A DNA stretch of 64,000 nt from Callorhinchus milii (Eukaryota), in NCBI RefSeq assembly GCF_018977255.1, contig NW_024704747.1, positions 16,306,001 through 16,370,000 of the forward strand, read 5' to 3'. The notes under the pieces were generated by a model that worked only from the letters and a program-made list of their open reading frames with translations, had not been told where the DNA came from and made no database searches. This document shows positions 10,527 to 11,280 of this stretch, one piece after another (the first letter of the stretch is position 1; each line of letters starts with the position of its first letter). Position numbers and translations under genes: made by a program.

Positions 10527-11280
10527 CGCTGAGGTGATGCGGCCGCTAGGTTCTCCTGTAGCTGGGACGTACCGTGTTGCTAAGGTGATGCTATTGCAAG
10601 CTTCTCCTGTAACTGAGGATATAGCTTGTTGCTAAGGTGATGCCCGTTGCTAGGGTCTCCATCTGGGTGTACCCTGTTGCTAAGTGATGCCGTTGCTAGG
10701 GTCTCCATCTGGGTGTACCCTGTTGCTAAGGTGATGCCCGTTGCTAGGGTCTCCATCTGGGTGTACCCTGTTGCTAAGGTGATGCCGTTGCTAGGGTCTC
10801 CATCTGGGTGTACCCTGTTGCTAAGGTGATGCCCGTTGCTAGGGTCTCCATCTGGGTGTACCCTGTTGCTAAGGTGATGCCGTTGCTAGGTTCTCCATCT
10901 GGGTGTACCCTGTTGCTAAGGTGATGTTGTTGCTAGGTTCTCCTGTACCTGGGAGTTGTCGCCTGTTGCTAAGGTGATGCCCGTTGCTAGGGTCTCCATC
11001 TGGGTGTACCCTGTTGCTAAGGTGATGCCGTTGCTAGGGTCTCCATCTGGGTGTACCCTGTTGCTAAGGTGATGCCGTTGCTAGGGTCTCCATCTGGGTG
11101 TACCCTGTTGCTAAGGTGATGCCGTTGCTAGGGTCTCCATCTGGGTGTACCCTGTTGCTAAGGTGATGCCCGTTGCTAGGGTCTCCATCTGGGTGTACCC
11201 TGTTGCTAAGGTGATGCCGTTGCTAGGGTCTCCATCTGGGTGTACCCTGTTGCTAAGGTGATGCCCGTTGCTAGGGTCTC
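10527..11280. repeat. 47/48-bp minisatellite, ~16 units
   Basis: Unit TGTTGCTAAGGTGATGCC(C)GTTGCTAGGGTCTCCATCTGGGTGTACCC starts at 10627, 10675, 10721, 10769, 10816, 10864, 10911 (variant), 10964, 11012, 11059, 11106, 11153, 11201 and 11248 (partial). Diverged units at ~10527 and 10575. Confidence 0.97.

Follow-up and report, generated by a model that had tools for sequence, protein, structure and literature searches.

Predicted RFX X-boxes in a 47-bp minisatellite abutting the ABI2 promoter of Callorhinchus milii

The window (the whole stretch of 64,000 nucleotides of Callorhinchus milii DNA that was analysed) holds the first two coding exons of ABI2 and, directly upstream of the ABI2 promoter, a tandem array of short units. 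The 39 residues encoded by exon 1 are identical to those of ABI2 of Callorhinchus milii and Cetorhinus maximus. Intron 1 (11510-62027) extends over about 50.5 kb and contains tRNA-headed SINEs at 22868, 45302, 50371 and 57208, together with LINE reverse-transcriptase-like fragments; an Rfam search returned four tRNA-like SINE heads and nothing more. LINE- and SINE-like pieces also lie 250-1200 bp upstream of the array. No coding exon was found with Pfam in 150 of the 205 open frames of 1-10600 (all 106 on the forward strand and 44 of the 99 on the reverse strand, one match below the cut-off being disregarded), and a protein search with the translated upstream frame gave no match. The motif over the ABI2 ATG is presumably YY1-like. 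The array and the promoter comprise the following features.

10469..10584, + strand: putative non-coding upstream exon (116 nt), placed by the length and end letters of X5 RNA contig 13
10525..10575, + strand: outermost unit and the most degenerate, with 3 changes in one box and 2-3 in the other
10576..10627, + strand: old-type 52-bp unit, A-box intact and B-site decayed, with a putative splice donor after 10584
10628..11280, + strand: homogeneous minisatellite of 14 units, each an A-part (16-18 bp) and a B-part (30 bp), the final unit truncated
10912..10964, + strand: odd internal 53-bp unit with an exact A-box, like the old-type units and the units of two related species
11249..11262, - strand: last A-box, ATCACC-TT-AGCAAC, exact to consensus 3, 4 and 7 of PMC5024701 Table S1
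11267..11280, - strand: last B-site, a perfect RGYAAC half and a degenerate half
11285..11291, + strand: CGGAAGT, which we take to be an ETS-like site, its GGAAGT core retained in both related species
11306..11313, + strand: an element that is presumably GC-box-like, within a CpG-rich, TATA-less promoter
11348..11372, + strand: pyrimidine tract ending CAG, splice-acceptor-like, where an RNA contig of X5 departs from the reference
11393..11509, + strand: ABI2 first coding exon, 39 codons, matching ABI2
62028..62195, + strand: ABI2 second coding exon, joined to the first by splicing in run X5

Tandem Repeats Finder delimits the minisatellite as 10569-11280, with a period of 47, 14.8 copies and 92% matches. 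The window contains 38 copies of the heptamer GTTGCTA, where 7.9 would be expected; of these, 29 fall inside 10576-11273 (28 from 10628 onwards, plus one at 10576) and nine outside, in agreement with the initial annotation of a promoter-abutting array of about 29 sites. Fifteen of the 29 are A-type sites, 14 of them with the exact sequence GTTGCTAAGGTGAT and the copy at 10676 one base short. The other 14 are B-type sites, among which 12 are exact GTTGCTAGGGTCTC and the copies at 10882 and 10929 carry one change each. Cutting the array at the GTTGCTA sites yields A-parts of 16-18 bp that alternate with B-parts of 30 bp. The array ends at 11280 and is followed, after a gap of two bases, by GGCGGAAGT; the distance to the ABI2 ATG (11393) is 112 bp. 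These measurements match the earlier statement that the array ends 2 bp before the ETS site and about 110 bp before the ATG. Its start had been placed at 10527, and the most degenerate unit begins at 10525 instead. The boxes span 112-817 bp upstream of the ATG, next to a CpG-rich stretch. The array itself is CpG-poor, with one CpG per unit and an observed/expected ratio of about 0.3. The promoter VNTR class is characterized by units of 10-100 bp, arranged head to tail within a proximal promoter, and the array consists of such units.

In the outermost unit (10525-10555) both boxes begin with GCCGCT, not GTTGCT, so that an identical double change is present twice; the shared change suggests, from the letters of that unit, a conversion within it. 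Just upstream of the array, CTGTTGCC is found three times on one strand (10089, 10319 and 10420), out of nine copies in the window (2.4 expected), and the copy at 10420 is directly preceded by AGGTGAT. The upstream copies are possibly relics of older units or additional RFX half-sites. Two candidate features were dropped. Helical phasing of the boxes was one, their spacing being uneven at 1.5-1.7 and 2.9 turns; the other was a DNA fold computed for two units, which was weak at -9.6 kcal/mol and had no shuffle control.

The quality of the predicted RFX sites was judged by two yardsticks, namely the X-box consensus used in the initial annotation, GTNRCC-N0-3-RGYAAC, and the seven consensus sequences of PMC5024701 Table S1. 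By the first, 26 of the 29 sites combine an intact RGYAAC half with a 2-base spacer and an opposite half that mismatches at a single base; no site is free of mismatches, and five one-mismatch sites occur in the remaining 63 kb of the window. By the second, the A-box is exact to three of the seven sequences (consensus 3, 4 and 7) in 14 copies and has one mismatch to consensus 1. The B-site is exact to none of the seven; it has one half intact and departs from consensus 1 at a single base, and neither box is exact to the stricter human consensus 1 or 2. The B-site has 11 of 14 bases in common with the DYX1C1 probe that was bound by RFX1 and RFX2 in PMC5024701 (probe as given in the Methods of that paper, Table S2 of which labels the boxes differently). 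By this comparison the A-box appears as the sole full X-box of the two sites per unit, and the B-site is best read as a half-site only. The earlier count of about 29 X-boxes is thus overstated: it holds for the 14 A-boxes that are exact to three of the seven consensus sequences and fails for the 14 B-sites that are exact to none.

The 29 sites go back to one or two ancestral motifs through tandem copying and do not count as 29 independent observations. Because the units are copies of each other, a single shuffled 47-mer unit is a fair null and was taken as the null model. Dinucleotide shuffling of one unit produced a one-mismatch GTNRCC-N0-3-RGYAAC site in 69 of 5000 cases; 85 of 4000 shuffles were exact to any of the seven consensus sequences, and one of 4000 was exact to 3, 4 and 7 together. 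The A-box match exceeds chance for an X-box motif, yet this motif was picked post hoc among many possible ones. In Drosophila, according to PMC2375033, an X-box match alone did not tell targets from controls, whereas conservation did (70% vs 23%).

For the mouse orthologue, RFX occupancy has been reported in two tissues. In ependymal cells, the Abi2 peak of RFX1 lies at -238 and that of RFX3 at -199 (PMC7498320 Tables S6 and S8); in testis, Abi2 is among the RFX2 ChIP targets (PMC4498915 Table S1). Peaks of this kind are common, with totals of 7440 for RFX1 and 9318 for RFX3, and Abi1 also has an RFX1 peak; the RFX2 testis study (PMC4498915) gives 977 promoter peaks. No row of the RFX2 promoter sheet of PMC7498320 is among the first 13 of the 22 places examined for Abi2, and ABI2 does not occur in five supplementary files of PMC5838959, a study of human RFX targets. 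Both knockout tables of differential expression leave the expression cells of Abi2 blank, which is read as no significant expression change. By analogy with mouse, RFX at the ABI2 promoter is plausibly ancient, and its effect on mouse Abi2 looks small or redundant. Two proposals of the initial annotation are affected. The idea that copy number tunes ABI2 is weakened by the absence of a listed Abi2 change in the mouse RFX knockouts. The idea that an ancestral X-box was amplified into a cluster keeps its A-box component, through the exact match to three consensus sequences, the retention of the last box pair and the mouse RFX1, RFX3 and RFX2 peaks, but not its B-sites, which are half-sites only.

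The reading favoured here, in which our confidence is about even, is that the 47-bp minisatellite grew out of an old RFX site of the promoter that was copied in tandem, with RFX1/2/3-type binding predicted at 14 full X-boxes and at most a fine-tuning of ABI2. Since RFX occupies mouse Abi2 some 200 bp ahead of its start, an RFX site beside an ETS-like site, at a housekeeping-type promoter, would be the ancestral state. This site would first have been duplicated within a unit and then in tandem. The present unit carries one full-consensus A-box and one B half-site, and two related species have related units at the same place. Slippage or unequal exchange would extend the array upstream, away from the promoter, and leave the oldest units at the far end, while turnover by slippage or conversion would have led to a recent spread of the shorter 47/48-bp variant in the window's species. 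RFX dimers are predicted to sit on the A-boxes and to help hold the CpG-rich promoter open, and ETS- and GC-box factors would provide basal activity. Transcripts started upstream of the array may use an A-box as donor, splice the array out and back-splice to a circle, as one contig would have it. The effect of the array on ABI2 is likely to be modest.

The main rival, which we consider somewhat unlikely, holds that the minisatellite is neutral: slippage by a CpG-rich promoter copied a unit that happened to bear a site, in effect the last box pair alone would count, the further copies being unbound or inert. The blank Abi2 cells of the mouse knockouts and the CpG-poor composition of the array are in keeping with neutrality, as is the seeming variation in unit number between samples and species. 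Comparison with two related organisms bears on the same question. Organism B (run X14) differs from the window at 17 of 131 nearby intron positions (about 13%), and organism C (run X15) differs by about 13% likewise. In both, A-B units continue into the ETS-like site, as in the window, and the spacer is rewritten and resembles that of the old-type and odd units of the window. The X15 unit contig is 3.3 times deeper than its flanks; X14 depths were excluded from copy-number estimates because of a GATC insertion typical of proximity-ligation libraries. Given the related units and the old-type-like spacers in B and C, an array of approximately 52-bp units would predate the species split, the shorter variant having spread in the window's species.

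Neutrality is harder to reconcile with an array that persists in three species whose nearby intron is about 13% different. It is also harder to reconcile with an A-box that stays constant in three divergent unit types while their tails have turned over, although gene conversion could explain this as well. Across those three unit types of the window the A-box is identical and the tails show 3-6 differing columns out of 16-21, in addition to gaps; a fourth unit type has an A-box with three changes, and the B-site is no better preserved within the window than the tails. In the last box pair two changes are listed in both relatives, one at 11264, between the boxes, and a T>C at 11272 in the last B-site that is compatible with the consensus. 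The last A-box (11249-11262) has no listed difference in X14 or X15, in a comparison that leaves differences near contig ends unlisted. In X14, one of the 28 box bases of the last pair differs against 17 of 131 intron positions, which is not significant (P = 0.11 binomial, 0.20 Fisher), a result that sits well with a neutral array; box conservation across species is only suggestive. An X-box at orthologous ABI2 promoters is suggested by the pair retained in B and C and by the mouse peaks, at a conservation not significantly above background (P = 0.11-0.20).

Several further observations were made on related sequences. In X14 and X15 alike, six bases are deleted at the GC-box-like element and a long run of C is present near 11333-11341 (within 11306-11341). 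The GATC insertion of organism B lies at 11424 in the coding exon and looks like a proximity-ligation junction, not a frameshift allele. A metagenome scan for ABI exon 1 retrieved 27 loci, one of them vertebrate-like (L001, teleost-like), and no half-site is present in the mere 141 upstream bases of L001. In P0002, a single elasmobranch-like protein prediction, V-A-R followed by P-E-V precedes the ATG; these residues may be compatible with a half-site followed by an ETS site, a codon-level hint only.

The copy number of the array was approached through contigs of sequencing runs. Four of the 24 listed runs were compared over 11202-11640, a span that takes in the promoter-proximal end of the array. 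Four samples of organism A contain 0.55-0.63 of the sampled words from 10527-11520, and organism A is taken to be the window's species since run X1 shows no difference over promoter and exon. The unit contigs of X1 have depths of 25.6 and 37, against 7.2-7.4 for unique flanks (3.5-5 times deeper). The repeat is thus present in DNA beyond the reference assembly and is not a pure assembly artefact, a possibility that the initial annotation had raised. The X1 depth ratios of about 5.1 and 3.5 amount to 0.57-0.66 of the 7.8 and 6.1 predicted by the window, which suggests that X1, another sample of the species, carries approximately 8-9 units as against 14 in the window, contig depth being a poor measure of copies. 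The left-edge array contig of X1 corresponds to the old-type unit 10576..10627 and differs from the window in the first regular unit. Together these differences hint at length variation of the array between samples.

Another possibility to consider is that the assembly expanded one or two units into an array, or that the array is a repeat internal to a transposon. The shortfall of the X1 depth ratios relative to the window prediction and the LINE- and SINE-like pieces upstream of the array would fit such an origin. It is nevertheless very improbable, given that unit contigs exceed their flanks in depth in both X1 and X15, that the internal variants of the array are not something an assembler would create, and that no further copy of the unit was found in the rest of the window or in the 27 fetched loci.

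A second layer of the locus concerns splicing. Run X5 contains the ABI2 exon 1-exon 2 junction and is for that reason treated as RNA. A looped contig of 283 letters in this run proceeds from the end of exon 1 into 112 letters off the compared stretch and then re-enters at 11371 (joint 11511 to 11371), in the pyrimidine tract ending CAG. The loop calls for an inserted 116 nt with GT at its start and AG at its end. Two AG|GT..AG|GT candidates of 116 nt are present on the + strand of the window, and one of them, 10469-10584, is preceded by a pyrimidine-rich acceptor and has its donor within the A-box at 10576; with this exon the lengths add up to those of the contig (116 + 137 + 30 = 283). An equally good candidate exon exists anywhere in the window for only 6 of 141 tested lengths. 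Within a search limited to the window, 10469-10584 is the probable source of the 112 letters. If so, upstream-started transcripts would splice out the array as a 788-nt intron and would be back-spliced to a 253-nt circle, as judged from the length of one contig.

The candidate exon contains four ATGs in one frame, which is open across the ABI2 ATG and out of frame with ABI2, and a linear form with the upstream exon would for this reason translate ABI2 poorly. Conceptual translation of the 253-nt circle gives the 39 ABI2 residues and 10 more before a stop. By depth arithmetic the loop stands at about 34-70 against 169 for the linear junction in X5. Alternative upstream exons could arise from a further acceptor-like site ahead of 10413 and from GAG|GTGATG, which resembles a donor, after 10533. 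The lack of X5 cover at 11281-11370 was not counted as evidence, because short 5′ tips drop out of contigs.

The 5′ splice-site 9-mer AAG|GTGATG within the A-box has 14 copies in the window, all 14 of them in the array. The A-box, as its letters read, thus doubles as a 5′ splice-site sequence, a property that is new here and was missed in the first reading, and one RNA contig suggests that the array is intronic in upstream-started transcripts. The rival that ranks next to the neutral array starts from this overlap and treats the array as a splice-junction minisatellite of the F7 intron-7 type, in which the end of an upstream exon and its donor were copied downstream, the A-box was kept as a splice signal and the likeness to RFX sites is secondary. 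The confinement of the 9-mer to the array, a 116-nt candidate exon that ends exactly at the 9-mer and completes the length sum, and the rarity of good candidates of a given length all speak for this origin, which on balance we regard as quite unlikely. The last 60 bases of the candidate exon are degenerate array units; since it holds the earlier unit at 10525, the exon seems to have been built from the array and not the reverse. The boundary at 10584, which follows from length, falls in the second unit and not in the first. Moreover, the portion kept in the related species is the promoter-proximal end, the upstream flank of B at the far edge of the array is unlike the exon, the mouse RFX peaks are left unexplained, and the 112 contig letters are matched by length and end letters. 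Because the candidate exon contains array sequence, the splice donor was probably recruited from the array later, as an addition to the multiplied RFX site of the favoured reading.

An extension of this idea is a dual-use minisatellite, in which a 14-bp core would be fixed as both RFX X-box and splice donor while the spacers turned over, across chimaera-like lineages. Array length would then set ABI2 promoter strength as well as the output of a uORF-laden upstream isoform and of a 253-nt circular RNA with the ABI2 start codon; as a whole, this scheme is speculative and rather unlikely. Still more doubtful is a bidirectional promoter in which the array drives a divergent transcript away from ABI2. 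The X-boxes are quasi-palindromic and RNA-like run X5 contains a pure-array contig (depth 32.7), two points in favour of such a promoter. Contigs do not give the strand, however, and collapsed repeat copies from intron RNA or DNA, with which the pure-array contig fits, would produce an equal contig. The divergent transcript proposed in the initial annotation found no support, as the sole upstream transcript structure fits the sense strand and the 150 of 205 open frames searched in 1-10600 hold no coding exon.

In humans, repeats that multiply a factor site are known at the promoters of TRIB3, MAOA and SIRT3, and they are mostly young and species-specific. For example, the 33-bp VNTR of the human TRIB3 promoter is human-specific, comes in 1-5 copies with a C/EBP-ATF site, and has a measured effect of copy number (PMC7425993, Ord et al. 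2020). Like the TRIB3 VNTR, in which the transcription-factor site of the unit predates the repeat (PMC7425993), the ABI2 array is a tandem repeat of a proximal promoter, and its unit contains a predicted factor site that is probably older than the repeat. It differs in having about 14 units, each with a predicted RFX box and a half-site, and in the occurrence of related units in three species; both relatives carry multiple copies. The best reading is that the ABI2 array is, by structure, a TRIB3-type promoter minisatellite in which an old RFX site has been multiplied, likely to be bound and with a small effect if any.

The individual sites resemble the X-box elements of DYX1C1 and DCDC2 (PMC5024701) and of FGF1B (PMC2859551) in being 14-bp imperfect inverted repeats with one perfect RGYAAC half and a 2-base spacer, presumably near a gene start. 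RFX-bound regions usually contain one site or 2-3 close sites (PMC7498320), unlike the 14 full boxes and 14 half-sites in tandem at ABI2, for which binding is predicted only. On the splicing side, the array is like the 37-bp VNTR of human F7 intron 7 (PMC1557585, Borensztajn et al. 2006), each unit of which repeats the 5′ splice-site sequence, and the putative ABI2 donor is the most upstream identical copy. The first F7 unit spans an authentic coding exon boundary (PMC1557585). The ABI2 upstream exon differs in being non-coding, drawn from one contig and partly made of array, and the array abuts the main promoter. Non-coding VNTRs that act via site number or splicing are reviewed in PMC12776774, and no RFX-site minisatellite and no report on the ABI2 array were found in searches of the open-licence literature.

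If nothing scales with copy number, the ABI2 array is an ordinary minisatellite. If binding is confirmed, the array would serve as a natural experiment on how RFX output depends on the number of sites, in a gene that is RFX-bound in mouse. It would also be an instance of a promoter array that lasts from species to species with a unit that is rewritten along the way. That X-box and splice donor overlap would, in addition, tie promoter repeats to the output of 5′ isoforms and circular RNA.
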